Notes: generated by a model not told the origin, from the sequence alone. A DNA stretch of 64,000 nucleotides from a bacterium (GCA_030646915.1 JAUSKT010000014.1:30409-94408), one strand, 5' to 3'; counted from the stretch's first letter, positions 11,229-30,219 are shown. A program made the numbers and translations.

Positions 11229-11238
11229 ATATTTTATC

Positions 11239-11678: not shown

Positions 11679-11782
11679 TCCCGTTAGAAAATTAATAAAT
11701 ATGTTTATATATAGCAATAATTTTATAGAGCAATATCGGAAGTCTTTAGTCGCAAAGACGTTTAATTTAATTTTCTAACGGG
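11679..11782 (+). repeat. start-codon palindromic element (MITE-like), copy 1, abutting rpsG ATG
   Basis: TCCCGTTAGAAAATTAA...TTAATTTTCTAACGGG terminal inverted repeat; flanked by ATGAG (11674-11678) and ATGAG (11783-11787); through-ORF 11674..11778. Confidence 0.85.
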
Positions 11783-12250
11783 ATGAGAAAAAAACGAAAT
11801 TATAAAAGAGACCACGAACCGGATTTAAATTATGGAAGCGTATTAATCGGCCGGTTTATTAATTATTTAATGGAAGACGGTAAAAAATTAGTTGCGGAGA
11901 AAGTGATGTATAAAGCTTTAGATGAAGTTAAAAAAGCAACCGGACAGGAGCCTTTGCAGGTTTTTGAAAAAGCAATGGAAAACGTGACGCCTATGGTGGA
12001 AGTTACTTCCAAAAGAGTTGGAGGCGCTAATTATCAAGTTCCCCGCGAAGTTCGGCAGGAAAGGAAATTTATGCTTGCTGCCCGCTGGATGATTGACGCA
12101 GCCAGGAAAAAAACCGGAAAACCAATGTCAGCCCGGCTTGCGGAAGAATTGGTGCTTGCCTCTAAAAATGAAGGTTCTGCGATTAAAAAGAAATTAGATA
12201 CTCATAGAATGGCAGAAGCTAACCGGGCATTTGCTCATTTTGCTAGATAA
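11783..12250 (+). CDS. rpsG: 30S ribosomal protein S7
   Basis: 155 aa with the S7 signature region (VEVTSKRVGGANYQVP), str-operon position. Confidence 0.95.
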   Translation: MRKKRNYKRDHEPDLNYGSVLIGRFINYLMEDGKKLVAEKVMYKALDEVKKATGQEPLQVFEKAMENVTPMVEVTSKRVGGANYQVPREVRQERKFMLAARWMIDAARKKTGKPMSARLAEELVLASKNEGSAIKKKLDTHRMAEANRAFAHFAR

Positions 12251-12256
12251 CCAGCT

Positions 12257-12664: not shown

Positions 12665-12684
12665 AAATCAATTTTAAATAAATT

Positions 12685-14787: not shown

Positions 14788-14962
14788 CTCGACTTTCGGT
14801 TTCCTCAAGAACGCTGCTTCGTCAGAAACAAAACTAATTCACTCATAGCATAAAAATTTCGCCCTAGTCATTCTTCCTGGGCACCTGAAATTTTTACTAC
14901 TCGCTCAAAGTTTTGTAATCTGCCTACGCAATGTTCTTTCAGAAAGAAAGTCTCGCTTGTTG
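14788..14962 (+). repeat. post-stop structured repeat, family C (large imperfect inverted repeat)
   Basis: starts directly after fusA TAG; left arm 14788-14836 is the imperfect reverse complement of 14909-14956; nested AAAAATTTC/GAAATTTTT stem; right arm resembles 29611-29685. Confidence 0.7.
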
Positions 14963-14988
14963 GATAAATTTTTACTATAACGCATTGC

Positions 14989-15160
14989 AGTACTACGCCT
15001 AGGTGTAGTACTGGACAAGTGAAGCTTTAAATATAAAAAACCCCCAGACTTTAGTCCGTGGATAGTTGGCATATCCCGCACTACACCTAGGTGTAGTGCG
15101 GGATAAGTGAAGCTTATGATATCAAAGAAACCGCGGCCGTAAGGCCGCGGAGTTTCACTT
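14989..15160. other. two tandem hairpin+AAGTGAAGCTT units followed by a GNRA-capped GC hairpin (candidate small RNA or protein-binding module)
   Basis: hairpin 14989-15012 and perfect 32-nt palindrome 15073-15104 share core ACTACRCCTAGGTGTAGT; each is followed by AAGTGAAGCTT (15017-15027, 15105-15115); CCGCGGCC-GTAA-GGCCGCGG at 15131-15150; AAGTGAA can pair with TTCACTT at 15154-15160. Confidence 0.5.
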
Positions 15161-15165
15161 AAATT

Positions 15166-15196
15166 AAAAAAACCGCTTTTCAGCGGTTTTGTTTTT
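15166..15196. terminator. bidirectional rho-independent terminator
   Basis: A7-ACCGC-TTTTCA-GCGGT-TTTGTTTTT; U-runs on both strands; overlaps the stop of the minus-strand CPBP-like gene. Confidence 0.75.
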
Positions 15197-15878
15197 CATA
15201 AGTGTAGTAGCCCGGGCCGACTCTCATATTGTGATGCCAGTCATTTGGCAAAGAATAGCTTACGGTTAATCCTAGAATTGCGTGTAATAATGCCAAAAGA
15301 TACACATTTCGCAATTGTTTATTAGGATTCAGAAAAAAATACGAGCAAAGAGTTCCGCCGAAAAAAGTTACTGGCATAAGCACTGGATTTGGCAAATGAG
15401 TAATTGCGAAAAGCAATCCGGTAATTAAAGCAGAAATAAATCTTTTATTAATAACACTGTTAATTTGATTTCCGAAATAACCATTTAGTATTATTTGCTG
15501 GAATAGCGCCCAAATAGAATAGCCCAGCAGATTTCCTGCAAAAAGAGCAAAATTTACTGGAAAATTATTTTGAATAAAAGAAAAAAAATTTGCCAGAAAG
15601 TCTGGATTATAAATTTCTGCGATTAAGGTAATAATTCTCCCAAAAAATACGGAAATGACTATTACTGGCAGGCGATCTATCACGGAATCTTTTGGCGACA
15701 AGCCCAGATTTTTCTTCAGAGTTTTCCAGGATGTTCCATTAGTCAGCCAAAGCCGACGTCCGACGTATAAAGACAGGGACAAGTAAAAAAATAATTTATA
15801 TGGCAGAATCCACATTGCCAAATTCACAATTAAGAATACTGCTATCAGTTCTATTGTTGTGGCGATTGGGCTAAGCAC
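15180..15878 (-). CDS. CPBP-family-like membrane protein (catalytic EE replaced by QQ)
   Basis: 232 aa polytopic; FAITH (FxxxH) and LLHAILG motifs present, but the EExxxR position reads QQIILNG. Confidence 0.5.
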   Translation of the reverse strand: MLSPIATTIELIAVFLIVNLAMWILPYKLFFYLSLSLYVGRRLWLTNGTSWKTLKKNLGLSPKDSVIDRLPVIVISVFFGRIITLIAEIYNPDFLANFFSFIQNNFPVNFALFAGNLLGYSIWALFQQIILNGYFGNQINSVINKRFISALITGLLFAITHLPNPVLMPVTFFGGTLCSYFFLNPNKQLRNVYLLALLHAILGLTVSYSLPNDWHHNMRVGPGYYTYEKQNR

Positions 15879-15974
15879 TTTCTGTATTTATTGTTGTATA
15901 GATCTAGGTCAAAATTAGCAATTTAAGACGGTTTTGTAAATCCCCGTACCTTATTTATGCACAATTTTAGCCCC

Positions 15975-16004
15975 TTGACAGATTTTATGGCTTTCGGCTA
16001 TAAT
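15975..16004 (+). promoter_or_regulatory. sigma70-type promoter for tuf
   Basis: TTGACA (15975-15980), 18-nt spacer, TATAAT (15999-16004); ~95-nt leader containing a CTGGCGGC...GCCGCTGG hairpin. Confidence 0.65.
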
Positions 16005-16102
16005 ATTTTGTATTACGCGTCGAGAGCAATTATATTAAAAATTATAAAAATTAAATTTAATTAACTGGCGGCATGGCTTAAAAGCCGCTGGGAAATAAGA
16101 CT

Positions 16103-17302
16103 ATGGCAGAAAAAGCCAAATTCGAACGAAAAAAGCCGCACGTAAACGTCGGCACAATCGGACACGTCGACCACGGTAAAACTACTTTAACCGCGGCTAT
16201 TACACACATCGCTTTTTTAAAAGGTTGGGCATCAAAAGAAGAGCGGGTAGATCAAATTGATAATGCTCCGGAAGAAAAAGCCCGCGGTATTACAATTGCT
16301 TTGCACCATTCAGAATATGAATCCGAAAAGCGCCACTATGCGCACGTGGATGCTCCAGGCCACGCAGATTACATTAAAAACATGATTACCGGCGCTGCCC
16401 AGATGGACGGCGCTATTATAGTAGTTTCCGCAGCAGACGGCCCAATGCCTCAAACTCGAGAGCATATTTTGCTTGCCCGCCAAGTCGGCGTGCCAGCTTT
16501 GGTTGTATTCTTGAATAAAGTGGATATGGTAGACGACCTAGAATTAGTTGATTTAGTTGAATCAGAAGTAAGGGAACTTTTAAAGAAATATGAATTTCCT
16601 GGTGATACTACGCCAGTTATCCGAGGTTCAGCCTTAAAAGCTTTGGAAACAAAATCAGCCGATTCTCCGGAAGCAAAGCCGATTTTAGATTTAATGAAAG
16701 CTTTAGATGAATTTATTCCGGACCCAGTTCGAGATACCAGCAAGCCTTTTCTTATGCCTATTGAGGATATTTTCTCAATTGAAGGCCGTGGCACAGTGGT
16801 TACTGGCAGAATAGAAAGAGGAATCGTTAAGATTAATGAAGAAATTGAAGTTGTCGGACTTACGCCAACTATGAAAACTGTTGTTACCGGCATTGAAATG
16901 TTTAATAAGCTTTTAGATGAAGGCCGAGCTGGCGATAATGTGGGTATCTTGCTTAGGGGTTTGAAAAAAGAAGACGTTCAAAGAGGTCAAGTTTTGACAA
17001 AGCCAGGCTCAGTTACTCCTCATACTGATTTTGAAACTGAAGTTTATGTGCTTAGTAAAGAAGAAGGCGGCCGCCACACCCCATTTTTCAAGGGTTATAA
17101 GCCTCAATTTTATATCCGAACTACTGATGTTACCGGTGAAGTAATTTTGCCGGAAGGTATGGAAATGGTAATGCCTGGCGACACTGTCAAGCTTACTGTT
17201 AAGTTAATTGCTCCTGTAGCTCTCGAAGAAAAACAGCGCTTTGCTATCCGCGAAGGAGGCAAAACGGTGGGAGCGGGAGTAGTTCTAAAGATTCAGAAAT
17301 AA
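16103..17302 (+). CDS. tuf: elongation factor Tu
   Basis: 399 aa; [19 protein letters not shown] motifs. Confidence 0.98.
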
Positions 17303-17329
17303 TAGAATCTTTATAGTTATCAGCCATTT

Positions 17330-17656
17330 ATGGCAAAAAAAGAAATTGAAAAAGAAAAATTGAGATTAAAGATAAAGGCCTACGATCATAAATTGATTGA
17401 TAATTCTTGCCGGCAAATTATTGATACGGCTAAGCGCCATGACGCAGAAGTTATTGGCCCGATTCCATTGCCAACAGAATTAAAAAAGTATACAGTCAAC
17501 CGGTCAACCTTTGTCCATAAAGATTCTAGAGAACAGTTTGAATTGCGGGTTCATAAGCGTTTAGTGGATATATTGAATCCTAATCAAAAGATCATAGAAT
17601 CTTTATCAAATCTTAATTTACCTGCAGGAGTTGATATCGAAATCAAAATGGTGTAA
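17330..17656 (+). CDS. rpsJ: 30S ribosomal protein S10
   Basis: 108 aa; [16 protein letters not shown] and the FELRVHKRL region typical of S10. Confidence 0.95.
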
Positions 17657-17697
17657 GATATCAATTACCATAAGGAGATAGCCAAATCATTATAAAA

Positions 17698-17728
17698 ATA
17701 ATTCGAGGCTACCTCGGATTATTTTTTT
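17698..17728 (+). terminator. intrinsic-terminator-like hairpin between rpsJ and rplC (possible attenuator)
   Basis: 11-bp stem ATAATTCGAGG-CTA-CCTCGGATTAT (one G-U pair) followed by T6. Confidence 0.55.
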
Positions 17729-17744
17729 AGAAAAATTATAAAAA

Positions 17745-18170
17745 ATGGAAAAAATACAAGCTAAAAAATTAAAAATGACTCAAATTTGGAAAGGCGACAA
17801 AGTCTTTCCTGTTTCTCCATTGCAATTGAAAGATGCTACTCAATTGGATTTATTCAAAGAAGGGGATCAAGTAAAAGTAACTGGAGTGACTAAGGGACAT
17901 GGCTTTCAAGGTGTGGTTAAGCGCTGGAGTTTTGCTGGCGGACCAAAAACCCATGGTCAGAAAAATCGTTATCGATCCCCTGGATCAATTGGCAGCACTG
18001 CTCCGCAAAGAGTTGTCCCGGGAAGAAAAATGGCTGGCCGAATGGGAGGAAATCAGAAGACCATTCGAAATTTAAAAGTAGTAGAGTTAGATAAAAATAC
18101 TGGAAAGCTTTTTGTGCGCGGTTCAGTTCCCGGCAATACAAATTCAAAAGTTTTAATAGCTAAATCTTGA
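17745..18170 (+). CDS. rplC: 50S ribosomal protein L3 (short form, 141 aa)
   Basis: KKLKMTQIW N-terminus, TKGHGFQGVVKRWSF and GSIGSTAPQRVVPGRKMAGRMG motifs; lacks about 60-70 residues of the central region found in typical ~210-aa L3. Confidence 0.88.
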   Translation: MEKIQAKKLKMTQIWKGDKVFPVSPLQLKDATQLDLFKEGDQVKVTGVTKGHGFQGVVKRWSFAGGPKTHGQKNRYRSPGSIGSTAPQRVVPGRKMAGRMGGNQKTIRNLKVVELDKNTGKLFVRGSVPGNTNSKVLIAKS

Positions 18171-18176
18171 TTTTTT

Positions 18177-18788
18177 ATGAACACGCTCAAAGTTTACAAT
18201 CAAGAAGGCAATGTTACTGGTGATTTATCCGCGCCGGCATTTTTGTCTTTGCCTTCAAATGTTGCTTTAATGCACCAAGTTTTTAAATCTATAGCGGCGA
18301 ATTTGCGCAAGCCAGTTGCTCATACTAAAAATAGAAGCGAGGTAAGCGGCGGCGGTATCAAACCTTGGAAACAAAAAGGAACTGGCCGAGCCAGACACGG
18401 TTCTATTCGTTCTCCGCTTTGGCGCCATGGCGGAGTTACTCACGGACCAAGAAATACAACTGATTTTTCCCAAAAAATTAATAAAAAAATGGCTAAAAAA
18501 GCTTTACAACTTGCTTTAGGAGAAAAGTTTAAAGCTGATCAGTTAATGGTAGTCAATGATCTTTTGCCGAAAGAAATGAAGACCAAATTTTTAGCTAGAA
18601 CAGTTAAAAATCTTATTGGCGATAAATCGGCGCTTTTAGTAGTTTCTCAGGAGGATAAAAATTTACTCCGGTCTTCTAAAAATCTTCCAAATGCAAAAAC
18701 AATTTTCGTTAAAGATTTGAATGTTTATGAAGTGTTAAATCATAAATATATTTTAATGGATAAAAAGGCTATGGAAAGTTTTAAATAA
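18177..18788 (+). CDS. rplD: 50S ribosomal protein L4
   Basis: 203 aa; KPWKQKGTGRARHGSIRSPLWRHGG motif; operon order. Confidence 0.93.
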   Translation: MNTLKVYNQEGNVTGDLSAPAFLSLPSNVALMHQVFKSIAANLRKPVAHTKNRSEVSGGGIKPWKQKGTGRARHGSIRSPLWRHGGVTHGPRNTTDFSQKINKKMAKKALQLALGEKFKADQLMVVNDLLPKEMKTKFLARTVKNLIGDKSALLVVSQEDKNLLRSSKNLPNAKTIFVKDLNVYEVLNHKYILMDKKAMESFK

Positions 18789-18794
18789 AATGGA

Positions 18795-18898
18795 TCCTGT
18801 TAGAAAATTAATAACTATGTTTAATCATATCCAAAATTTTATAGAGCAATATCAGAAGTCTTCAGTCGGCAAGATGTTTAATTTAATTTTCTAACGGG
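18795..18898 (+). repeat. start-codon palindromic element, copy 2, abutting rplW ATG
   Basis: TCCTGTTAGAAAATTAA...TTAATTTTCTAACGGG; flanked by ATGGA (18790-18794) and ATGGA (18899-18903); through-ORF 18790..18894. Confidence 0.85.
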
Positions 18899-19177
18899 AT
18901 GGACAAATTTTTAATAAAAAAACCTATTGTTACTGAAAAATCTACTGATCTTGGCGCTTTAAATAAGTATGTTTTTTTGGTTGACGAAAAAATTACTAAA
19001 TCGGAGGCCAAAAAAGTTTTAGAAAAAATTTATAATGTTCAGATACTAAGAACAAATGTTATTAATGTTAAAGGCAAGACCCGCCGATTAGGCAATAACG
19101 TTGGCATTAAGCCTGGATATAAAAAAATTATCGCGACTCTTGCAAAAGGCCAAAAATTAGATATATTACCGCAATAG
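18899..19177 (+). CDS. rplW: 50S ribosomal protein L23
   Basis: 92 aa; PIVTEKS start region and operon order. Confidence 0.9.
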   Translation: MDKFLIKKPIVTEKSTDLGALNKYVFLVDEKITKSEAKKVLEKIYNVQILRTNVINVKGKTRRLGNNVGIKPGYKKIIATLAKGQKLDILPQ

Positions 19178-19195
19178 TTAAATAAGCCAGTATTT

Positions 19196-20020
19196 ATGAA
19201 AAATTTTAGACCTACAACTCCATCAAGAAGGCATATGACCACTGTTGATTACAGTGTTTTAACCGATGTCAGACGCTATAAACCCTTAACTCATGGCATG
19301 GGCAAGCGAGGCGGAAGAAATAACCAGGGCCGGATTACTATGCGTCATCAGGGCGGAGGCAATAAAAGAGTCTATCGTTTAGTAGATTTTAAACAAAATA
19401 AAATAAATGTTCCTGGCCGAGTAGAGAGTATTGAATATGATCCTTATCGAAGCGCTTATATTGCTTTAGTAGTTTATAAAGACGGAGAACGGAGATATAT
19501 TTTAGCTCAAAAAGAATTAAAAGCAGGAGATGAAGTTTTAACTGCCCAACAGGCGCCGCTTAAACCAGGTAATCGTTTGATGTTAAAAAATATCCCAATC
19601 GGTTATTTAGTTTCTAATGTGGAATTACAAGCTGGCAGGGGCGGCCAATTAGCCAGATCAGCCGGTTCTTATTTAGAAGTTTTAGGACAAGAAGGGGGGC
19701 ATTGCGTTTTAAAACTCTCTTCCGGGGAAGTTAGGAAGGTTTCTTCTGATGGGTATGCCTCTATCGGCCAACTTTCTAATCAGGATTGGAATTTAGTTAC
19801 TATTGGCAAGGCTGGCCGTTCAAGATGGCTTGGAATCAGGCCAACTACCAGGGCCAAAGCTATGAATCCGGTAGATCATAAATACGGCGGCGGCGAAGGC
19901 AGTACTCAGCGTGGCACTAAGCGTCCAAAGGATATTTGGGGTAATATTACCGGCGGCAGGAAAACCAGGAATAAAAAGAGAAGGTCTACAAAATTAATTC
20001 TTTCTAGGCGGCCAAAATAA
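19196..20020 (+). CDS. rplB: 50S ribosomal protein L2
   Basis: 274 aa; [16 protein letters not shown] and [13 protein letters not shown] motifs. Confidence 0.96.
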
Positions 20021-20024
20021 TTTT

Positions 20025-20351
20025 ATGAGCAGAAGTTCTAAAAAGGGTCCTTACGTTGATCCAAAATTATTAAAGAAAATTTCTAAATTAAAACCGGGAG
20101 ATAAAACGGTTATTAAGACTTGGTCCCGAGCTTCGGAAATCGCTCCGGAAATGGTTGGTTTTGTTTTTGGCGTCCATAATGGAAAGAATTTTATTGAGGT
20201 TTTAATTAAAGAAGAAATGGTTGGCCATCGTCTCGGGGAATTTTCTTTAACTCGTAAATTTGTCCGCCATGGAGGTAAAATGCAGCGAGAGCTGGAAGCT
20301 TCTAAAGCTGCTGCTCCCGCCGCTTCGCCAGCACCGGGCGCTAAAAAGTAA
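20025..20351 (+). CDS. rpsS: 30S ribosomal protein S19 (with Ala/Pro-rich C-terminal tail)
   Basis: [11 protein letters not shown] start, [13 protein letters not shown] motif. Confidence 0.94.
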
Positions 20352-20368
20352 ATTTTATTAAAAATTTT

Positions 20369-20875
20369 ATGTCTCAAGTTACTGCAAAATTAAATTATCT
20401 ACATATCGCACCGAGGAAAGTTCGGTTAGTTACCAATGCCTTAAAAGGCCTTTCAGTTAATGAAGCAGAGGCTCAGCTTTTATTCAGGTCAAAGCGTTCT
20501 AGTGAATCTTTATTAAAACTTCTTCGTTCTGCGGTGGCTAATGCAAAAAATAATCATAAATTAAATGTGGATCGTCTAGTAATTAAGGATATCCGCGTAA
20601 ATCAGGGGCCAATGCTTAAAAGATTTATGCCGCGCGCAATGGGACGAGCTACTCCGATTCAAAAGAAAACAAGCCATATTTTTTTAGTTTTAGAAGAGCG
20701 TTCTAATTTTAAATCCTCAAGATTTAATATTGCAGTTTCTAAGAAGACTAAAGTGCCAAAAACAGAAAAAACTGTAGCAAAACCTAAATTAATTAAGACT
20801 GACACATCTGTTAAAAAAACTAAAGAAAAGGCCGGGTTTTTCCGAAAATTATTTTCTAGAAAGAGCGCAGTTTAA
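20369..20875 (+). CDS. rplV: 50S ribosomal protein L22 (C-terminally extended)
   Basis: LHIAPRKVRLV and RAMGRATPIQKKTSHI motifs; ~55-aa Lys-rich extension. Confidence 0.92.
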   Translation: MSQVTAKLNYLHIAPRKVRLVTNALKGLSVNEAEAQLLFRSKRSSESLLKLLRSAVANAKNNHKLNVDRLVIKDIRVNQGPMLKRFMPRAMGRATPIQKKTSHIFLVLEERSNFKSSRFNIAVSKKTKVPKTEKTVAKPKLIKTDTSVKKTKEKAGFFRKLFSRKSAV

Positions 20876-20888
20876 TCAATTAATTATT

Positions 20889-21551
20889 ATGGGTCACAAA
20901 ATTAATCCAAATTCATATAGGATTGGAATTAACAAAAACTGGACTTCCCGTTGGTTTGTTCGAAAGAATGTAAAAGATGTATTAGAAGAAGATATTGCTA
21001 TTCGAAAGATTATTCGTGAAAAAATCGGCACTGCCGGTTTAGATAAAATTGATATTGAGCGCAATACTTCTCAATGCAAAATTTTTATTAAAGCGGCTAA
21101 GCCGGGCTTGGTTATCGGCCGTGGCGGTCAGGGTATTGAAGATTTAACAAAAGCTATTGAAAAAGAATTATTAAAATTAGTTAAGCGGAGGAAAAGAGGA
21201 GTTCCGCCAACTATTAGCGTTAATGTTGAAGAATTGAAACGGACAGAAATTTCTGCTCCGGTATTAGCGCAGCAAATAGCTTGGGATTTAGAGAAGAGAA
21301 TGCCTTTTCGTAGAACTATGAAGAAATATTTAGAAGGAATGATGCAAAACAGGGATGTTCAAGGAGCAAAAATAAGGATGTCAGGACGTTTGGATGGCAA
21401 TGAAATCGCGCGCACCGAGTGGTTGGCGAAGGGGAGATTGCCTTTAACTACTTTACGTTCTAATATTGATTACGCTGATGCCACTGCTTTTTGCAGTTAT
21501 GGGGCAATAGGAATAAAAGTCTGGATTTATAAGGGAGAAGTGCAAGAATAA
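20889..21551 (+). CDS. rpsC: 30S ribosomal protein S3
   Basis: [13 protein letters not shown] start, KH domain GRGGQGIE. Confidence 0.96.
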
Positions 21552-21553
21552 TT

Positions 21554-21964
21554 ATGTTAATGCCTAAAAAAGTAAAACATAGGAAGTGGCAAAAAGGCCG
21601 TTCCTTAAATAGAAAGATGGAAACTCGCGGCACTACTTTGGCTTATGGTAATTTTGGTTTAAAAGCTGAAACTAGCGCTTGGATTAACGGCAGGCAGATT
21701 GAAGCAGCCCGAAGAGCAATAAGTAATTTTATTAAAAGAGAGGGAAAGGTGTGGATTAGGATTTTTCCGGATAAACCGATTACTGAAAGGCCCCCAGAAG
21801 TTACTATGGGTGGCGGCAAAGGAGATTTAAAGGAATTTGTAGTCCCAGTTTATCCAGGCAGGATTCTTTTTGAAATGGATGGAGTTGCTCCAGAAATAGC
21901 CAAAGAAGCTTTGCGATTAGCTGGATATAAATTGCCGGTTAAAACACGAGTAATTGTTAAATAA
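21554..21964 (+). CDS. rplP: 50S ribosomal protein L16
   Basis: [16 protein letters not shown] start, RMGGGKG-like TMGGGKGD motif. Confidence 0.96.
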
Positions 21965-21966
21965 TC

Positions 21967-22158
21967 ATGAAACGGGACATTTTACAAAATTTAAAAGAGA
22001 AATCCAAGGATGACCTTGAGAAAGAATTAATAAGCGTCAAAGATCGTTTGTGGCGGCTAAAAGTTGATTTAGAAAGCGGAAAGGTAAAGAATGTCAGTGA
22101 GATACGCAAATCCAGAAAGGCGATTGCCGTCATTAACACCTTATTAAAATCAAAATAA
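21967..22158 (+). CDS. rpmC: 50S ribosomal protein L29
   Basis: 63 aa helical protein in the conserved L16-L29-S17 position. Confidence 0.88.
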
Positions 22159-22168
22159 ATTTAAAATT

Positions 22169-22477
22169 ATGTTAGGGATATTTAATAAAAAAGATTCTAA
22201 TTCTGATCAAAAAAATATGTCGGAAGTTAAAGATCAGAAAAAATCCGGGAGTCGCAAGCTCCAGGGGGTTGTGGTTTCAGATAAAATGAAAAAAACAGTC
22301 GTAGTAGCAGTTACAAATTATAAATTACATCCAAAATATAAGAAATTTTTTACTTCTACCAATCGTTTTAAAGCTCATGATGAGAATAATACGTATCATG
22401 TCGGCGATAAAGTCATAATCCAAGAAACTCGGCCACTTAGTAAAGAAAAAAGGTGGATTGTAGTCGGCAAATTATAA
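22169..22477 (+). CDS. rpsQ: 30S ribosomal protein S17 (N-terminally extended)
   Basis: [16 protein letters not shown]...HPKYKK...HDENN...[14 protein letters not shown] pattern. Confidence 0.92.
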
Positions 22478-22484
22478 AAATTTT

Positions 22485-22853
22485 ATGATTCAAGAAAGAT
22501 CTATTTTAAAAGTTGCGGATAATAGCGGCGCTAAAATCGTCCGATGTTTTAGGGTGCTTGGCGGCAGTAGAAAGCGATATGCGGGAATCGGCGACATTAT
22601 TGTTGCTTCAGTCCAAATTGCTGAACCCCGAAAGCCGATCAAAAAGAAAGAAATAGTCAAAGCTTTAATAGTCCGTCAGCATAAGGCGCTTCGCAGAAAA
22701 GACGGTTCTTATATTCGTTTTGATGATAATGCCGTTGTAATTATTGATGAAAAGGGGGAGCCGAAAGGAACTCGTATTTTTGGACCGGTGCCGAGAGAAA
22801 TTAAAGAGTACGGATTTGAAACAATATTTTCAATGGCAGAAGAAATAGTTTAA
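22485..22853 (+). CDS. rplN: 50S ribosomal protein L14
   Basis: [17 protein letters not shown] start; 122 aa. Confidence 0.97.
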
Positions 22854-22862
22854 ATATATGAA

Positions 22863-22967
22863 TCCCGTTAGAAAATTAATAAATATGTATAAATATATAA
22901 ATAATTCAACCAAGCAATATAGAAAGTCTTTAGTCGGAAAGACGTTAGTTTTAATTTTCTAAACGGG
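22863..22967 (+). repeat. start-codon palindromic element, copy 3, abutting rplX ATG
   Basis: TCCCGTTAGAAAATTAA...TTAATTTTCTAAACGGG (one bulged A); flanked by ATGAA (22858-22862) and ATGAA (22968-22972); through-ORF 22858..22962. Confidence 0.85.
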
Positions 22968-23273
22968 ATGAATATTCATAAAGGTGATAATGTACAAATA
23001 ATGGCGGGTAAAGATCGCGGCAAGCGGGGCAAGGTTTTAGATATTGAAATGAAAAAATCTAAAATTTTGATACAAGGATTGAATTTATTTAAAAAACATA
23101 AAAAACCGACAAAGCAGGGAGAAAAAGGAGAAACTATTTCTGTATCCCGCTATTTGAGCGTATCTAGCGCATTGTTGGTTTGCAGTTCTTGCGATAAACC
23201 ATCTCGCATTGGATATAAAGATGAAGGCGGGAAAAAAGTCCGTTATTGCAAAAAATGCCAGGCAATAATTTAA
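22968..23273 (+). CDS. rplX: 50S ribosomal protein L24 (with CxxC...CxxC C-terminal module)
   Basis: KGDNVQIMAGKDRGKRGKV KOW motif; operon order. Confidence 0.92.
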   Translation: MNIHKGDNVQIMAGKDRGKRGKVLDIEMKKSKILIQGLNLFKKHKKPTKQGEKGETISVSRYLSVSSALLVCSSCDKPSRIGYKDEGGKKVRYCKKCQAII

Positions 23274-23278
23274 ATAAT

Positions 23279-23767
23279 ATGAAAGAAAATTCTTATAAAA
23301 ATTTAGAAAAATTAGTTGTTAATACCGGCCTTGGCCGCTTATCGAGCCAGCCTAATTTTGAAGATAAATTGCTTCCGGAATTAGTAAAGGAATTCAGCGT
23401 TATTGTCGGACAAAAGCCGGCAATTCGCGCCGCTAAAAAATCTATTGCCGGATTTAAACTTAGGATGGGAACGGTGGTTGGATTAAAAGCTACTTTAAGA
23501 AAAAAGCGCATGGAGCAATTTTTGAAAAAATTGATTAATGTTGTGTTGCCTCGCGTCCGGGATTTTCGCGGAGTTAAAAATACTGCTATCGATCAGAATG
23601 GAAATTTAAGCATAGGCTTAAAAGATCAATTAGTTTTTCCGGAAGTAAGCCCGGAAACTTCCAGAGTTAATTTCGGATTGGAAGTCACCTTGGTTCCAAA
23701 ATCCAAGAATAAAGAAAAAGCAGTCGAGTTATATAAAGAATTGGGGATACCCTTCAGTAAAAAATAA
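23279..23767 (+). CDS. rplE: 50S ribosomal protein L5
   Basis: start moved to the ATG at 23279 ([11 protein letters not shown]), 6 nt after rplX stop; VVNTGLG and [13 protein letters not shown] motifs. Confidence 0.92.
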
Positions 23768-23778
23768 ATTTATTAATT

Positions 23779-23964
23779 ATGGCAAAAGCATCAGTTGAGG
23801 CGAGAGCCCGTAAAAAACCAAAATATTCCAGCAGAAAAGTACTGCGTTGTTTTCGTTGTGGCCGAAAACGCGGTTATATCAGGGATTTTGGCCTATGTAG
23901 AATTTGTTTTAGAGAAATGGCTATTAAGGGCGAAATTCCCGGAGTTAAAAAGTCTAGCTGGTAG
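23779..23964 (+). CDS. rpsN: 30S ribosomal protein S14 type Z (zinc-binding)
   Basis: 61 aa; [20 protein letters not shown] zinc motif. Confidence 0.95.
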
Positions 23965-23985
23965 TTTTTAAGCTTATATAAAATT

Positions 23986-24366
23986 ATGTATTTCGATTTA
24001 TTAACAAAAATTAAAAATGCTCAGGCTGTGAAAAAAGAAAGCGTGAAGCTTCTATATAGTAATATGGATTTTGCAGTCGCTGAACTTCTTGTCAAACATA
24101 AATTTTTAGAAGCAGCCTCCAAAAAGGGCAGAATGCCTAAGAGAATTTTAGAGGTGAAGCTAAAGTATCAAGACGGCAAAGGAGTAATGCAGAATTTCCG
24201 CATTTTAAGCAAGCCTTCTAGAAAATTGTATATTGGATATAAAGATATCAGGCGAGTCCGGCAAGGATATGGCTTATTAGCCTTATCTACTCCAAAAGGT
24301 ATTTTGGACGGAAAATCAGCCAGACAGCAGAAATTAGGAGGCCAATTATTATTTGAGATATGGTAG
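23986..24366 (+). CDS. rpsH: 30S ribosomal protein S8
   Basis: 126 aa; LLTKIKNAQ start and C-terminal GGQLLFEIW. Confidence 0.94.
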   Translation: MYFDLLTKIKNAQAVKKESVKLLYSNMDFAVAELLVKHKFLEAASKKGRMPKRILEVKLKYQDGKGVMQNFRILSKPSRKLYIGYKDIRRVRQGYGLLALSTPKGILDGKSARQQKLGGQLLFEIW

Positions 24367-24399
24367 TTCGATAATTTTGCTATAAATTAAATTAAAATT

Positions 24400-24951
24400 A
24401 TGTCTAAAGTAGGTAAAAAACCAATTATTATTCCAGACGGAGTCAGTGTTAAAATGGAAGGAGGCTTTTTAGAAATTAAAGGAAAAGAAGGATCTCTTTC
24501 TTTGCCGATTTTGCCGCATACAAAAATTGAATTAAGCGATAAAGAGTTATCCGTAAAAATAGAAAATGACGAATTGCAGGCAAGGGCTAATTGGGGAACG
24601 ATGAGGGCTTTGGCGCAAAATGCGATTACAGGAGTAAACAGCGGGTTTTTAAAAGAATTAGAAATTCAAGGAGTGGGATATCGGGCGTCAATGGAGGGCA
24701 ATACTCTGGTATTGCACGTAGGTTTTTCTCATCCAGTTAAAATTTTAGTTCCGGATGGCATAAAGGTTTCAGTTGAGAAAAATTTTATAAAAATTTCCGG
24801 TTTTAACAAGAATTTAGTTGGCCAGGTGGCGGCAAAAATTAGAGATGTTAAAAAGCCAGAGCCATATCAAGGCAAGGGCATCCGTTATAAAGGCGAAGTG
24901 GTTCGGAGAAAGGCGGGCAAGAAAGTTGCCAGCGCTGCTGCCGCTGCTTAA
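24400..24951 (+). CDS. rplF: 50S ribosomal protein L6
   Basis: MSKVGKKPIIIPDGV start, EPYQGKGIRYKGE motif. Confidence 0.95.
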   Translation: MSKVGKKPIIIPDGVSVKMEGGFLEIKGKEGSLSLPILPHTKIELSDKELSVKIENDELQARANWGTMRALAQNAITGVNSGFLKELEIQGVGYRASMEGNTLVLHVGFSHPVKILVPDGIKVSVEKNFIKISGFNKNLVGQVAAKIRDVKKPEPYQGKGIRYKGEVVRRKAGKKVASAAAAA

Positions 24952-24974
24952 GTCATATAGTGTAATTTATGAAA

Positions 24975-25079
24975 TCCCGTTAGAAAATTAATAAATATGT
25001 TTAAATATAGCAATAATTTTATAAAGCAATATAGCAAGTCTTATGTCGGTAAGACGTTGAATTTAATTTTCTAAACGGG
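24975..25079 (+). repeat. start-codon palindromic element, copy 4, abutting rplR ATG
   Basis: same ends with a bulged A; flanked by ATGAAA (24969-24974) and ATGAAA (25080-25085); the 6-nt duplication puts the upstream ATG out of frame (ATG AAA TCC CGT TAG); internal hairpin carries compensatory GTCTTA/TAAGAC. Confidence 0.85.
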
Positions 25080-25436
25080 ATGAAAAATATTAAATTAAAA
25101 AATGTTAAAAGAGAAAGGAGAAAGAAAAGAAATCGGGCAAAAATTTTAGGCACAGCTGAAATGCCGAGATTTTCAGTTTTTAGAAGCAATCGTTATACCA
25201 GCGCGCAATTGATTGATGACTTATCAAGAAAAACTTTATTATCAGCCTCTACTAAAGAGTTGAAAGTATCTGGGAAGAATAAAACTGACCAAGCCCGTTT
25301 AGTAGGAGAAATGCTAGGAGAAAAAGCGCAAAAAGCCGGAATTAAAAAAGCTGTTTTTAACAAAGGATCATATCTATATCATGGCCGAGTGAAAGCTGTC
25401 GCAGATGGTGCAAGAGCCAAAGGTTTAGCATTATAA
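25080..25436 (+). CDS. rplR: 50S ribosomal protein L18
   Basis: 118 aa; PRFSVFRSNRYTSAQLIDD and YHGRVKAVADGAR motifs. Confidence 0.94.
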   Translation: MKNIKLKNVKRERRKKRNRAKILGTAEMPRFSVFRSNRYTSAQLIDDLSRKTLLSASTKELKVSGKNKTDQARLVGEMLGEKAQKAGIKKAVFNKGSYLYHGRVKAVADGARAKGLAL

Positions 25437-25447
25437 AAGCCAATATT

Positions 25448-25996
25448 ATGGAAAATAAACAAAATCAAAATACTAATTTTAAAAATCCGGCCGGCGGCCG
25501 CGGCCGTAATTTCAGGGGGCCGCGCAGAGATTCCAGGGGAGATTTTAAGCAAGATTCTTTTAAAGAAAAAGTTTTAGACTTGCGGAGAGTTACTCGCGTG
25601 GTAGCCGGCGGCAAGAGGTTTCGTTTTCGAGTCACCTTAGTCATTGGCGATGAAAAAGGATCTGTAGGAGTGGGGGTAGCTAAGGGTTTGGATGTTCAAT
25701 CGGCTATAGAAAAATCAAAGCGAGATGCCAGAAAGAATGTAATTAAAATTCCATTAAATAAACGTACTATTCCCCATGAAGTTCGGGCAAAGTTTAGCGC
25801 AGCCGATGTTTTAATTAAGCCTGCAGTTGAAGGCCATGGATTAAAGGCGGGGGGCGCAGTTCGGGTAGTTTTATCTTTGGCTGGCATCAAAGATGTAACT
25901 GCGAAATGTTTGGGCAGAACGCCAAATAAATTAACTAACGCAATGGCAACTATAAAAGCCTTGTCCCAGTTAAAAGTTAAAAGTGAAAAGTTATAA
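25448..25996 (+). CDS. rpsE: 30S ribosomal protein S5
   Basis: RVTRVVAGGKRFRFRVTLVIGD and GVGVAKG motifs; Gly/Arg-rich N-terminal extension. Confidence 0.95.
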   Translation: MENKQNQNTNFKNPAGGRGRNFRGPRRDSRGDFKQDSFKEKVLDLRRVTRVVAGGKRFRFRVTLVIGDEKGSVGVGVAKGLDVQSAIEKSKRDARKNVIKIPLNKRTIPHEVRAKFSAADVLIKPAVEGHGLKAGGAVRVVLSLAGIKDVTAKCLGRTPNKLTNAMATIKALSQLKVKSEKL

Positions 25997-26004
25997 AATT
26001 TATT

Positions 26005-26388
26005 ATGGAATTATTTAGAAATTCAAAACAAAATAATAAAAGAGTCCAGAGAGTTGGGCGCGGCGGAAAGCGGGGAACCACTTCCGGCAGGGGAACAAAG
26101 GGGCAAAAATCCCGATCCGGCCATAGAATTCGGCCGGCAGAAAGGGATTTATTAATCCGATTGCCAAAATTGCGCGGATACAGAAATAAATCGATTAAAG
26201 AAAAATCAGGGGTGTTAAATTTAAGCGATTTAGCAAATTCAAAAGATACGATTTTTAATAAGAAAAATCTCGGTTTGGTAAAGATTTTGGGAGGAGGAGA
26301 ATTAAAAAAGCCGATTACTATTGAGGGTTTGCCAGTTTCTAAAAGCGCAAAAATAAAAATAGAAAAGGCTGGCGGGACAGTTAAATAA
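26005..26388 (+). CDS. rplO: 50S ribosomal protein L15
   Basis: RVGRGGKRGTTSGRGTKGQKSRSG motif; directly follows rpsE with no rpmD. Confidence 0.93.
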   Translation: MELFRNSKQNNKRVQRVGRGGKRGTTSGRGTKGQKSRSGHRIRPAERDLLIRLPKLRGYRNKSIKEKSGVLNLSDLANSKDTIFNKKNLGLVKILGGGELKKPITIEGLPVSKSAKIKIEKAGGTVK

Positions 26389-26398
26389 AGGTGATGGA

Positions 26399-26502
26399 TC
26401 CCGTTAGAAAATTAATAAATATGTTTATATATAGCAATAATTTTATAGAGCAATATCAGAAGTCTTTAGTCGGAAAGACGTTTAATTTAATTTTCTAACG
26501 GG
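26399..26502 (+). repeat. start-codon palindromic element, copy 5, abutting secY ATG
   Basis: perfect 16-nt TIR; flanked by ATGGA (26394-26398) and ATGGA (26503-26507); upstream duplicate preceded by AAGGTG; through-ORF 26394..26498. Confidence 0.85.
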
Positions 26503-27765
26503 ATGGAGAAATTACTTATTTTATTAAAAACGCCGGAGTTAAGAAAAAAGATTTTAGTGGTAGCTAGCCTGCTTTTAGTTTTTAGAGTTTTTTCTGCCAT
26601 ACCAATTCCTGGCGTTGATGTAGACCGCTTAAGCGCTTTTTTATCTTCCAACCAATTGCTAGGATTTTTTAACATTTTTTCTGGAGGAGCCCTTTCCACG
26701 CTTTCTATCGTGATGTTGGGGGTGGGCCCTTATATTACCGCGACTATTATCATGCAGCTTCTTACGATGATCTTTCCCCACTTAAAAGAAATTTATTATG
26801 AGCAGGGTGAAGCCGGCCGGGCGAAATTTAACAGGCTTTCTCATTATCTTACGGTTCCGCTTGCCGGATTGCAGGGATATGGATTTTTAAATCTTTTAAT
26901 TTCTCAAAAAGTTTTATTGCCATTATCTCCATTTGATACCGTAAGAAATATTCTCTTAATTACCGCGGGGTCACTTTTTTTGGTTTGGCTTGGGGAATTA
27001 ATCACCGAGCAGAAAATCGGTAATGGAGTTTCTGTTTTGATTTTTGCCGGAATCGTCAGCCAATTACCTAGTACAATTCAAGGGCTGTTTTTAAGTTATG
27101 ATCCTAGCTTAGTGCCAACTTACGTAGCTTTTTTGGTTTTAAGCGTGATAGTAATCGCTGGAGTAGTTTTTATTAATGAAGGAGAGCGGAAAGTTCCTGT
27201 TTCTTATTCTAAGCGAGTTCGTGGTAATCGGGTTTATGGCGGAGTCTCCAGCTACCTACCTTTAAAAGTCAATCAAGCGGGAGTCATTCCAATTATTTTT
27301 GCTATTTCTCTTCTGCTCTTTCCCCAATTCTTAGCTCAGGTTTCTGCTGTATTTTCTCCGGATCTTTCTATACGCCTGACTGAGTTAGTATCCAAAGTTT
27401 TGGGTAATCCCAGCCTTTACAGCGCTTTATACTTTATATTAGTAGTAATTTTTACTTATTTTTATACTGCTGTTACTTTTGATCCTCAGGAAATTTCTAA
27501 AAACCTTCAGAGAAGCGGCGGTTTTATTCCCGGCATCCGTCCCGGCCAGCCCACTGGCGAATTTTTATCCAAAGTAATTAATAGGACAACTTTGTTTGGC
27601 GCATTATTTTTAGGCACATTAGCTGTTTTGCCAAATATAATGCAGATTTTGACCGGAGTTCAGCTTTTGGCCTTGGGAGGCACATCGCTTTTAATTGTTG
27701 TATCTGTGGCCTTAGAAATAATGAAACAACTTGATTCACAGCTTGTTTTGAGAGAGTACGAGTAG
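26503..27765 (+). CDS. secY: preprotein translocase subunit SecY
   Basis: 420 aa, 10 TM; GVGPYITATIIMQLL and GELITEQKIGNG motifs. Confidence 0.96.
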   Translation: MEKLLILLKTPELRKKILVVASLLLVFRVFSAIPIPGVDVDRLSAFLSSNQLLGFFNIFSGGALSTLSIVMLGVGPYITATIIMQLLTMIFPHLKEIYYEQGEAGRAKFNRLSHYLTVPLAGLQGYGFLNLLISQKVLLPLSPFDTVRNILLITAGSLFLVWLGELITEQKIGNGVSVLIFAGIVSQLPSTIQGLFLSYDPSLVPTYVAFLVLSVIVIAGVVFINEGERKVPVSYSKRVRGNRVYGGVSSYLPLKVNQAGVIPIIFAISLLLFPQFLAQVSAVFSPDLSIRLTELVSKVLGNPSLYSALYFILVVIFTYFYTAVTFDPQEISKNLQRSGGFIPGIRPGQPTGEFLSKVINRTTLFGALFLGTLAVLPNIMQILTGVQLLALGGTSLLIVVSVALEIMKQLDSQLVLREYE

Positions 27766-27958
27766 CCACTCAGCCATTTTTCCAAACCAGCCAATATATT
27801 TCTATGAGAACCGCGGTTCTCTTGTCCTAGCTACAAGAGCCCGCTACCCCTCGGCAGAAAAAATCCGACCAAATAGGTCGGATAACAAGCTTTTTCTGCC
27901 TCCGAAGTTTCTCTACGAAATATATTGGCTGTTTTTGTTTGATAAAAATAGCCTCGCT
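27766..27958 (+). repeat. post-stop structured repeat, family B, copy 1
   Basis: ~190 nt, near-identical to 29423-29610 except for a central hairpin; begins right after secY TAG; outer stem CAAACCAGCCAATATATTTC / GAAATATATTGGCTG; 16-nt palindrome GAGAACCGCGGTTCTC at 27806-27821. Confidence 0.8.
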
Positions 27959-27975
27959 TAATTAGAATTTAAATA

Positions 27976-27984
27976 TGCTATAAT
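27976..27984 (+). promoter_or_regulatory. extended -10 promoter element upstream of adk
   Basis: TGCTATAAT 13 nt before the adk ATG; no good -35. Confidence 0.4.
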
Positions 27985-27996
27985 TTAATTTAAATT

Positions 27997-28677
27997 ATGC
28001 GAAAAGCAATAATCATTTATGGCCCGCCTGGAGCCGGAAAAGGAACGCAGGCTAACTTATTAGCTGATGTTTCTGGAATGCTTCATTTTGATACTGGAAA
28101 ATATATTGAGCAAGTAGTTCATGATCCGGCAAATCAAAAAAACAAAATTATTCAGCGGGAAAAAATCAATTTTGACAGCGGCAAGCTTTGCACTCCGGCT
28201 TGGGTGCTTAAAATAACTGTTGATAAAATTAAAGAGTTGTCTAAGGCTGGATTTGGTTTGGTTTTCAGCGGTTCGCCAAGAACTGTTTTTGAAGCTTTTG
28301 GGGATGATGTTAATGAGGGAGTGATTAGTGTTTTAGAAAAGCTTTATGGAAAGAAAAAAGTTGTTCCGGTTTTACTTAGGGTGGCTCCAAAAACTTCAAT
28401 TTTAAGGAATAGCAGCCGCTTAGTTTGTTCTATCTGCGGAACAGCGGTGCTCGCCCATAATTGTTTGGGCGCTAGCTGTCCTTTGTGCGGCGCAAAGCTG
28501 CGCAGAAGGACTCTAGATAAGCCAGAAGTAATAAAAGTAAGATTAGCAGAATATCAAAATCGCACCGCGCCAATTTTAGCAGGTTTAAAAAAACGCGATT
28601 ACAAAATTAAAGAAGTTAATGGGGAACCGGCTCCTTATAAAGTATTTCAAGCTTTATTTAAAAAACTAAATGATTAA
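27997..28677 (+). CDS. adk: adenylate kinase (zinc-lid type)
   Basis: GPPGAGKGTQ P-loop; lid CSICG...CPLCG. Confidence 0.92.
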   Translation: MRKAIIIYGPPGAGKGTQANLLADVSGMLHFDTGKYIEQVVHDPANQKNKIIQREKINFDSGKLCTPAWVLKITVDKIKELSKAGFGLVFSGSPRTVFEAFGDDVNEGVISVLEKLYGKKKVVPVLLRVAPKTSILRNSSRLVCSICGTAVLAHNCLGASCPLCGAKLRRRTLDKPEVIKVRLAEYQNRTAPILAGLKKRDYKIKEVNGEPAPYKVFQALFKKLND

Positions 28678-29422
28678 AACGGAGGCGGAAATTAAATTAA
28701 TAAGAATTGCCGGTAAAATTCTTTCCAGCGTTGCAAAAAAAGTTAAAGAATCAGTAGCGCCGGGCGTTTCTTTGCTTGAATTAGACCAGCTTACAAAGAA
28801 GTTAATTAGGGATGCGGGCGCGGAACCTACTTTCCTTGGATATCAGCCTTATGGCGCAGAAAAGCCTTTTCCAGCCTCTATTTGCGCTTCTTTGAACGAG
28901 GTGGTGGTTCATGGGATTCCGACTGGTTATAAGCTGAAATCAGGGGATTTATTGAAGCTGGATTTTGGGGTTACTTATCAGGGATATATAGCTGATTCGG
29001 CTTTTACTATCGGGGTAGGAAAAATTACCAAGCAAGCTAAAGATTTAATAGAAGCTACTAGAAATGCTCTTTCGGTTGGTATTAGGGAATGCCGTTCTGG
29101 GAAGACTTTAGGCGATATTGGCTGGGCAATTAATAATTATGTTGTTAAGCATGGATTTAAGGTAGTAAAAGGATTATCAGGCCATGGAGTGGGAAAAGAA
29201 CTGCATGAGGATCCGCCAGTTTTTAATGAAGGCCAAAAAAATACTGGTTTAAAATTAAAGCCAGGGATGGTGCTTGCGCTTGAGCCGATGGTCAGCGCGG
29301 GCGATCCATATATCACCCAGCTTGAAGACGAAAGTTACGCAACTAGAGATAAAAGCTTAGCAGCTCATTTTGAACATACTGTTTTGATTACTGAAAAAGA
29401 ACCGGAAATATTGACTAGATAG
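28670..29422 (+). CDS. map: type I methionine aminopeptidase
   Basis: 250 aa; VVHGIP, LKLDFG, SGHGVG, LEPM and HFEHT metal-ligand regions. Confidence 0.94.
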   Translation: MIKTEAEIKLIRIAGKILSSVAKKVKESVAPGVSLLELDQLTKKLIRDAGAEPTFLGYQPYGAEKPFPASICASLNEVVVHGIPTGYKLKSGDLLKLDFGVTYQGYIADSAFTIGVGKITKQAKDLIEATRNALSVGIRECRSGKTLGDIGWAINNYVVKHGFKVVKGLSGHGVGKELHEDPPVFNEGQKNTGLKLKPGMVLALEPMVSAGDPYITQLEDESYATRDKSLAAHFEHTVLITEKEPEILTR

Positions 29423-29610
29423 CTCGCATATTTTTCCAAACCAGCCAGTATATTCCTACGAGAACCGCGGTTCTCTTGTTCTAGCTACAAGAGCCCGCTA
29501 CCCCTCGGCAGAAAAATCCTTCGACAAGCTCAGGAAACAAGCTTTTTCTGCCTGCGGAGTTTCTCTACGAAATATATCGGCTGTTTTGTTTGATAAAAAT
29601 ATTCTCGCTT
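29423..29610 (+). repeat. post-stop structured repeat, family B, copy 2
   Basis: begins right after map TAG; same modules as copy 1; followed (29611-29685) by a segment resembling the right arm of family C. Confidence 0.8.
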
Positions 29611-29778
29611 TTTTTGCTTTGCTTATGCAATGTTCTTAAATAAATGAAAGGTTCGCCTTGTTGTTTTTAGCAGTTGCCGCATGGCAGATAAGTATAGTTT
29701 GCTTTTATTGTTTGATTTATTTTAAAAATAGTTTTATTATATCCTTAAGTTCATTTATAGCAGGAAAAGAAGATAGAG

Positions 29779-30219
29779 ATGCAAAAGAAAAAAAGTTTTG
29801 GAAGGCGTTTTGGTGAAGCTCTTTGGAAGAAACTTACTAAAGGTTGCAAGCCGGGAAAATGGCTTTGCGACGAAGAAAAAATATTTCTTAAAGAAACATT
29901 AAAAGAATTTAAAATATCTACTGTAAAGAGAGATAAGATTATAAACCTTGATCGTTGCAGTTGTTTGACTCTAATCAATTCGCATAAACAAGTTGAAGAT
30001 ATTCTAAATTATTCGCCGAGAGAACTGGAAATAAAAGAGGAGAGGCGAATCAAAACAGCAAAGCTTAAAGCAGAAAAGCGCCGCAAAAAACTGATGGCCG
30101 AGATACGTCAAGTAAAGAAATTATTCAAATCAGCGAAAAACAAAGATCACGTTACTACTCTTAAAAAAATAATAAGACTAAACCGTTTTTTGATGAAAAA
30201 TTTGTCGTACTACGTTTAA
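29779..30219 (+). CDS. hypothetical Lys-rich protein
   Basis: 146-aa ORF followed by a terminator; no family recognised. Confidence 0.45.
   Translation: MQKKKSFGRRFGEALWKKLTKGCKPGKWLCDEEKIFLKETLKEFKISTVKRDKIINLDRCSCLTLINSHKQVEDILNYSPRELEIKEERRIKTAKLKAEKRRKKLMAEIRQVKKLFKSAKNKDHVTTLKKIIRLNRFLMKNLSYYV

Follow-up and report, generated by a model that had tools for sequence, protein, structure and literature searches.

We analysed a stretch of 64,000 nt of bacterial DNA (GCA_030646915.1 JAUSKT010000014.1:30409-94408), here called the window, in which a short repeated element occurs five times, in each case on the + strand and ending exactly at the start codon of a gene. The downstream genes, identified by Pfam, were rpsG, rplW, rplX, rplR and secY. 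The five copies were 105-106 nt long, with a pairwise identity of 80-98% over this length, and the element contained no transposase gene, its sole open reading frame (ORF) having 34 codons. This micro-ORF was the object of the original prediction, according to which it starts at an upstream duplicate of the gene's ATG (hereafter ATG1), crosses the whole element and stops shortly before the real start codon, where termination followed by reinitiation could preserve expression of the gene. The relevant features of the window are the following.

11679..11783, + strand: element copy 1, before rpsG; ATG1 at 11674, micro-ORF 11674-11778, real start at 11783
18795..18899, + strand: element copy 2, before rplW; ATG1 at 18790, micro-ORF 18790-18894, real start at 18899
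22863..22968, + strand: element copy 3, before rplX; ATG1 at 22858, micro-ORF 22858-22962, real start at 22968
24975..25080, + strand: element copy 4, before rplR; 5-bp duplication TGAAA, real start at 25080
24969 and 24997-25074, + strand: reading frames of copy 4, namely ATG1 (24969), out of register and giving MKSR and a stop, and the ORF from the internal ATG (24997-25074)
26399..26503, + strand: element copy 5, 105 nt, beginning with T and ending with A, inserted between the first and second bases of the secY start codon
26395..26398, + strand: left target-site duplication TGGA of copy 5, which with A26394 makes the upstream ATG (ATG1)
26399..26415, + strand: left terminal inverted repeat of copy 5, TCCCGTTAGAAAATTAA
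26394..26498, + strand: micro-ORF of copy 5, MDPVRKLINMFIYSNNFIEQYQKSLVGKTFNLIF, 34 codons and TAA, the proposed relay ORF
26421..26423, + strand: internal ATG of copy 5, codon 10, in frame with ATG1, conserved, a possible second ribosome entry point
26462..26479, + strand: internal hairpin of copy 5, GTCTTT-AGTCGG-AAAGAC, with a conserved GTCG loop and a fixed distance to the right repeat
26487..26503, + strand: right terminal inverted repeat of copy 5, TTAATTTTCTAACGGGA
26503, + strand: last base of copy 5, the A of the functional secY ATG
26504..26507, + strand: right target-site duplication TGGA of copy 5, which with the terminal A26503 makes the secY start ATG (26503-26505)

The ORFs at 11674-11778, 18790-18894, 22858-22962 and 26394-26498 did encode the predicted 34-aa peptides, with the TAA 4-5 nt before the ATG. 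Copy 4 also read as had been described, ATG1 giving ATG AAA TCC CGT TAG (MKSR and a stop) and the internal ATG at 24997 opening a 25-codon ORF to the TAA at 25072-25074. In the NCBI annotation SecY has 420 aa and starts at 26503.

Anatomy, spread and placement of the element

Further copies were collected in two ways. A pattern consisting solely of the two repeat cores was run against public genomes and metagenomes, giving 45 and 99 DNA stretches, and iterated nhmmer returned 157 hits representing 122 distinct copies. A gene of at least 40 codons lay directly downstream of 103 of the 122 copies, and 89 of these 103 kept the upstream ATG. The named records with the element belonged nearly all to Patescibacteria (Paceibacteria, Lipton-, Harrison-, Sungii- and Brennerbacteria, and metagenome-assembled genomes labelled Saccharibacteria). 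Three pattern hits, in Dadabacteria, Pelagibacteraceae and Metamycoplasmataceae, were on one strand only and contained no nhmmer copy, and we treated them as chance matches; the viral contigs scanned with the repeat pattern gave 0 hits.

The flanks indicate that insertion is after the A of the start codon (A/TGRA), that TGRA is duplicated and that the start codon is rebuilt by the last base of the element (A, rarely G). Precisely, the 4-bp flanks were alike on both sides in 79 of 82 copies (TGAA 67, TGGA 10, TGAG 4), and 3-bp or 5-bp duplications were rare, copy 4 of the window being a 5-bp case. The base before CCCG pairs with the base after CGGG, being T..A in 104 copies and C..G in 7, and the downstream start codon was GTG in three of the C..G copies. 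This complementarity of the terminal bases across copies shows that the second ATG takes its A from the end of the element. A second ATG is thus present, as predicted, but it is not a simple duplicate of the first, the duplication being the 4 bp TGRA and the A belonging to the element.

In RNA folding the window copies formed a terminal stem of 17-18 bp (-25 to -31 kcal/mol), which enclosed a small hairpin and extended to the real start codon's A and U. The left repeat can be read only in the ATG1 frame, in which it encodes PVRKL, the other two frames being closed by TAG and TAA. The right repeat provides a TAA in two frames, and the third frame runs to an overlapping TGA at sites of the ATGA type.

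Junctions between orthologous genes were occupied by the element in some genomes and empty in the remaining ones (occupied at rplX in 9/17, at rplD in 5/11 and at secY in 3/12). The empty junctions had a single ATGAA and the same protein N-terminus. In a Harrisonbacteria relative, whose SecY is 81% identical, the secY junction was empty and the rplO junction occupied, the opposite of the window. Inverted repeats, a target duplication and orthologous junctions both occupied and empty are the hallmarks of a MITE (miniature inverted-repeat transposable element), and we conclude that the element is a MITE, i.e., a non-autonomous DNA transposon, widespread in Patescibacteria (bacteria of the candidate phyla radiation, CPR). 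Comparison of the loci establishes both its anatomy and its mobility.

The window had 438 ATG(AA/GA/AG) sites, about 7% of which were start codons, and 5/5 insertions were at start codons (P about 2e-6). The duplicated site was TG followed by AA, GA or AG in 81 of 82 copies vs 38% of native starts, a bias that points to a target preference beyond being a start codon alone. The restriction to start codons may have come either from targeting or from survivorship; a transposase aimed at start codons as such, with a placement not due to survivorship alone, is a possibility. The downstream genes were housekeeping genes, whose expression is indispensable, encoding ribosomal proteins (L24 in 7 cases, L4, L15 and L29 in 3 each, S7, L18, L23 and S13), SecY (3), triosephosphate isomerase, peptide deformylase, MiaA, HrcA, an ATP synthase subunit and Mur ligases. 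Despite the symmetric repeats, the orientation relative to the gene was 71:0 among the copies in which the place of the GTCG motif allowed scoring; for a copy at rpsN, the gene was placed on the forward side by tblastn.

The reading frame across the element and the proposed relay

The five copies of the window are close relatives, so the window alone cannot show that the frame is kept open more often than by chance. The comparison across many genomic copies, proposed with the original prediction, was therefore made on the 82 copies from other genomes that shared the common 6-nt register. The interior was free of stop codons in the ATG1 frame in 74/82 copies (90%), compared with 5/82 and 13/82 (6% and 16%) in the other sense frames, 23/82, 16/82 and 17/82 (20-28%) in the antisense frames and 15% of shuffles. 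Among the gene-adjacent copies the frame was, hence, retained far above the other frames and the shuffles, as expected from the prediction. When interiors were grouped by single linkage at 65-80% identity, 19/21 to 64/68 of the clusters were mostly open, with a binomial p of 3.5e-9 to 9e-31 vs a null of 0.28.

The ORF from ATG1 spanned the whole element in 73 of the 89 copies having the upstream ATG. It ended at the TAA at -7/-8 in 43 copies (in one of them at -9), at a second TAA at -15/-16 in 9, at a TGA overlapping ATGA (+1) in 20, and in one copy it reached 16 nt into the gene, so that the stop adjoined or overlapped the real start at one of the first three places in 72/89 copies. Element lengths vary by single bases, and because of these indels the ORF may end at any of the three stops, which come from the right repeat together with the target duplication and are all at most 16 nt from the real start or overlapping it. 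Conservation extends to the openness of the ORF and to its end beside the real start, but not to its length of 34 codons, to one particular TAA or to the frame in which the right end is read. The prediction of a relay ORF held in that the ORF is open to the right end, and has to be widened as regards the TAA and the length, neither of which is fixed.

A possible second entry into the same frame was also conserved. In 78 of 103 copies (76%) CCCG was followed by a frame-0 ATG at a distance of 15, 18, 21 or 24 nt, out-of-frame ATGs being rare there, and in all of the 8 copies whose upstream ATG was out of register the ORF from the internal ATG extended to the right end, which generalises the account given for copy 4. 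Counting either start, a relay ORF was present in 92/103 copies.

One explanation of these ORFs is that the element carries a functional small protein, with an open frame and a conserved N-terminus (M-x-PVRKL) in its favour. The conserved N-terminus, however, is the repeat read in frame and nothing more. By codon position, mean column entropy was 1.56, 1.57 and 1.69 and the differences counted between related copies were 188/203/217, with no codon periodicity, and the comparison of synonymous and non-synonymous variation, proposed together with the original prediction, gave 83:248 for single-base codon differences, i.e., no synonymous excess in the interior. In addition, the C-terminus switches among three frames, the sister families described below encode unrelated peptides, and the four window peptides were absent from a collection of 15 billion proteins in an exact look-up. 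A functional peptide is, hence, highly improbable, and we rejected the idea on the substitution pattern. An open frame that is kept together with an absence of codon periodicity and of peptide conservation indicates selection on translation through the element, not on the peptide. The comparison of copies establishes this selection, and we regard it as close to certain that the element is a MITE under selection to stay translatable.

The same constraint bears on whether the insert could be skipped, either by a ribosome jumping from the upstream ATGRA to the downstream one, a behaviour known from phage T4 gene 60 and the mitochondrial 'byp' elements, or by excision of the stem-loop from the RNA. 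A stable stem-loop bracketed by identical flanking sequences would suit such events, but skipping or excision would leave internal stops unconstrained, whereas the constraint seen was strong and frame-specific. Moreover, the common register has no stop codon after the take-off site, and we find skipping scarcely credible.

The translational context of the host genes was considered as well. A 4-mer resembling a Shine-Dalgarno (SD) site was found upstream of only 2 of 68 native genes of the window, with 78% A+T before the starts, and SD-like motifs were found at 9/92 insertion sites elsewhere. The host genome thus appears to be without SD sites, and for this reason AAGGTG (26386-26391), which had been taken as the original initiation context of secY, is probably no SD site. 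At 48 of 81 sites the upstream gene ended at most 10 nt from ATG1 or overlapped it (overlap in 19 of the 48, 18 of them as ATGA). Most insertion sites are thus close operon junctions, and at junctions of this kind translational coupling is the expected native mode of initiation. Reinitiation declines sharply as the distance grows, little of it being left at about 20 nt (PMC10666635), and all three stops of the element are within this limit.

The explanation that we consider probable, on comparative evidence from sequence, is a relay in which translation through the element is handed on to the real start codon. Ribosomes meant to start the gene would begin the micro-ORF at the original ATG or at the internal ATG instead, many of them arriving by reinitiation from the upstream cistron, as the operons seem to be without SD sites. 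They would translate through the element, melting the terminal stem of 17-18 bp that buries the real start codon, and would terminate beside the rebuilt start codon and pass translation on. The hand-over may be reinitiation by the same ribosome, or the start may be unmasked for a new ribosome; the comparative data fit both alike. With translation handed over in this way, the insertion would cost little, even before ribosomal-protein genes and secY. The frame test, with an ATG1 ORF spanning the element in most copies that have ATG1, supports this interpretation, and we infer that the micro-ORF is translated and that the downstream gene depends on it.

It is also conceivable, though rather unlikely in our judgement, that the element is simply a tolerated MITE, that the real start is initiated independently and that the frame is kept open only to avoid a harmful premature termination (e.g., Rho-dependent polarity or mRNA decay in an essential operon), with no ribosome handed on. 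The statistics on selection against stops fit this explanation too, the stops beside the start may be a mere by-product of the repeat sequence, and 11 of the 103 copies lacked any through-ORF, their genes being apparently intact. On the other hand, independent initiation would have to take place at a real AUG buried in a stem of -25 to -31 kcal/mol, in genomes that appear to have no SD sites to recruit ribosomes to it. Moreover, the stops lie at most 16 nt from the start in all three frames, and the conserved in-frame internal ATG would be left without a role if only avoidance of termination counted.

Several observations weigh against the relay. The 11/103 copies with a through-ORF from neither ATG, standing before intact genes as they do, imply that the relay is not absolutely required or that other starts are used. 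Exact repeat cores were demanded in the search for copies, so that decayed copies are under-sampled. With a stable stem 3 nt away, de novo initiation at the upstream ATG should be impeded. The fetched loci, about 0.94 Mb in all, yielded no autonomous transposase partner, and a search of them for repeat ends standing alone or far apart, as could flank an autonomous insertion sequence, brought up nothing but more small, diverged elements. A sister subfamily whose repeats are identical was found in both orientations (6:2), hence the single orientation that had been predicted holds for the family of the window element and not for this subfamily, and 6/8 of its copies, those in the commoner orientation, stop at codon 10 and would depend on a late internal ATGATG. 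Finally, the conserved GTCG hairpin has no role in the relay and is left unexplained by it.

The internal hairpin, related elements and other features of the window

The motif GTC(G/A) was present in 83 of 103 copies vs 21% of shuffles. Its distance to the right repeat was 16-18 nt in 66 copies, and it was evenly spread over the three codon phases. RNAalifold, run on a MAFFT alignment of 76 copies, returned the terminal stem only, because the inner hairpin is out of register in the alignment. Covariation was then measured by an anchor-based comparison of true arm pairs with arm pairs taken from different copies, and a stem of at least 6 bp was formed by 56% of the former vs 15% of the latter. 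Stem length was greater on the sense strand (p=0.0036). When the interior's last 42 nt were folded without an alignment, the structures were no stabler than those of shuffles (mean z -0.1), so the hairpin is defined by its position, loop motif and covariation, not by its stability. The hairpins of the element were not called as terminators in a terminator scan, and a promoter scan gave within the copies only weak promoter-like matches at chance level.

These data raise the question of whether the element acts chiefly as an RNA-level cis element, with the terminal stem and the GUCG hairpin serving for processing, stability or protein binding and the ORF being secondary. The covarying arms, the preference of the stems for the sense strand, the loop motif at a fixed distance to the right end in all three codon phases and the long terminal stem would all agree with this. 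Such an element would leave unexplained the frame-specific lack of stops, the in-frame internal ATG and the placement at start codons; moreover, an Rfam scan of 11000-30000 at E<=1 gave no match covering any copy, and sister families without the hairpin still keep a through-ORF. We consider it very unlikely. Retaining the relay, one may speculate, with a low expectation that it is so, that the element is a mobile regulatory module, in which the GUCG hairpin re-forms where the mRNA leaves a ribosome that terminates at the right end, and is bound by a protein or by the ribosome, tuning reinitiation; Patescibacteria would in this case have distributed a single shared translational control point over ribosomal-protein, secY and other core genes.

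Sister families were found in the same loci. Their likeness to the element is confined to the outermost (T)CCCGTTAGA...TCTAACGGG(A); inward of these ends both the repeats and the interior are different, and most copies measure about 118 nt. Of the ten copies listed here (given as locus and position), nine were at ATGRR start codons in the common register, the exception being L008.

L008:4026-4142, sister-family copy
L011:3648-3767, sister-family copy
L032:2795-2910, sister-family copy
L033:6724-6842, sister-family copy
L041:3681-3798, sister-family copy
L056:9147-9264, sister-family copy
L075:8739-8856, sister-family copy
L080:2590-2707, sister-family copy
L089:1890-2059, sister-family copy
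L124:7274-7395, sister-family copy

Through-ORFs of 39-59 codons in frame 0 were present in 7/9 sister-family copies, with 0.84 expected (p=1.9e-6), and frame 1 or 2 was open in 0/9. The shared ends point to a superfamily that may be mobilised through its terminal 9-10 bp. At L020:2564-2730, upstream of an rplW gene, a nested insertion was found, one element lying within another, and the pair had an unbroken 49-codon ORF from an internal ATG to a TGA overlapping the ATGA of the gene.

Variants with C...G ends were also observed, at L047:10016-10123, L078:5103-5181, L095:3522-3584, L101 (about 1480) and L065 (about 509), some of them being short GC-rich hairpins of 63-79 nt. Their flanks, about ...(T)AAA/C...G/TAAA(TG), suggest an insertion at the stop-start junction rather than within the start codon.

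The window contained other features in addition to the element. A second, unrelated MITE-like repeat was present at 27784-27935, just after the secY stop, and at about 29430-29587, just after the map gene, in copies 89-95% identical; its inverted repeats, of 27 nt, are AAACCAGCCAATATATTTCTATGAGAA and the reverse complement thereof, with 85% complementarity. A 135-aa ORF with no Pfam match lay at 12257-12664 between rpsG and fusA, which is unusual at that conserved junction. Between fusA and tuf, at 15131-15190, were two strong GC-rich hairpins, CCGCGGCC..GGCCGCGG and AAAACCGC..GCGGTTTT, terminator-like on both strands, and near them were a 47-nt direct repeat, 83% identical (14992-15038 and 15080-15126), and a sub-threshold Rfam match to MicX. 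No tRNA gene was found in the 64 kb window.

Meaning and comparison with known systems

If the relay holds, it would show how selfish DNA survives in a genome of about 1 Mb that has hardly any DNA to spare, the element bringing along a repair for the translation defect that it causes. Purely by comparison, there is evidence of selection on the translation of an insert that resembles non-coding DNA, and by implication the hand-over of ribosomes between adjacent ORFs would matter in SD-less organisms that cannot yet be grown or manipulated. The element would be a natural portable coupling cassette working in all three frames, and it may serve in the design of synthetic operons. On the practical side, two ATGs about 109 nt apart are a hazard for gene annotation, and occupied vs empty junctions are possible strain markers for Patescibacteria.

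The closest precedent of the element is the mycobacterial interspersed repetitive unit (MIRU). MIRUs are direct, often tandem, repeats of 46-101 bp in GC-rich actinobacteria, without terminal inverted repeats, and we know of no sequence relationship between them and the element. PMC12548453, summarising Supply et al. 1997, describes them as short, apparently mobile repeats at start codons within operons, thought to minimise the cost of insertion, and on this description the likeness to the element extends to shortness, repetition, apparent mobility and position at start codons within operons. The principle is shared with MIRUs, the element having an internal ORF that appears coupled to the downstream gene at its start codon. 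Whereas the mycobacterial units are direct or tandem and lack inverted repeats, copies of the element stand singly between inverted repeats, and their hosts, the Patescibacteria, are of another phylum. The inverted repeats are 17 nt long and flanked by a target duplication of 4 bp; the rebuilt start codon takes its first base from the element, stops are present in each of the three frames, an in-frame ATG lies inside, and the hosts are AT-rich and apparently without SD sites.

Rickettsia palindromic elements (RPEs) are mobile palindromes tolerated in compact genomes through a frame compatible with the host gene (PMC10969869), and the element resembles them in being palindromic, mobile and frame-compatible in compact genomes. 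RPEs, however, insert in frame inside coding sequences and join the host protein, whereas the element forms a separate micro-ORF stopping before the gene's start; it is not read as a part of the host protein, since stops in all three frames intervene. The element resembles the classical bacterial MITEs (Correia/NEMIS, ERIC, BOX, RUP and SPRITE) in that it is small, ends in inverted repeats, duplicates its target and exists in many copies, and in stem-loops co-transcribed with the genes beside them. A 2024 review of the roles of prokaryotic MITEs lists promoters, terminators, RNase sites, small RNAs and in-frame fusions, and mentions neither start codons nor translational coupling (PMC10969869); insertion at a start codon together with a coupling ORF would, thus, be a role added to that list. 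Neither Patescibacteria nor start codons are mentioned in a large survey of MITEs (PMC11602168).

As regards mechanism, bypass systems (T4 gene 60, byp) have matched take-off and landing sites, a stop directly behind the take-off site and a gap free of coding constraint, whereas the gap in the element is strongly constrained, in a frame-specific way, against stops. Termination-reinitiation, in contrast, is characterised by a stop that overlaps the next start or lies within about 20 nt of it, and this is the arrangement found in the element. In leader-ORF coupling and in synthetic bicistronic designs, a short upstream ORF likewise serves only to bring ribosomes to the next start or to unfold the structure there, with a stop that adjoins or overlaps that start (PMC12548453). 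Those systems are fixed parts of particular genes or are engineered, whereas the element would be a mobile cassette that installs itself.

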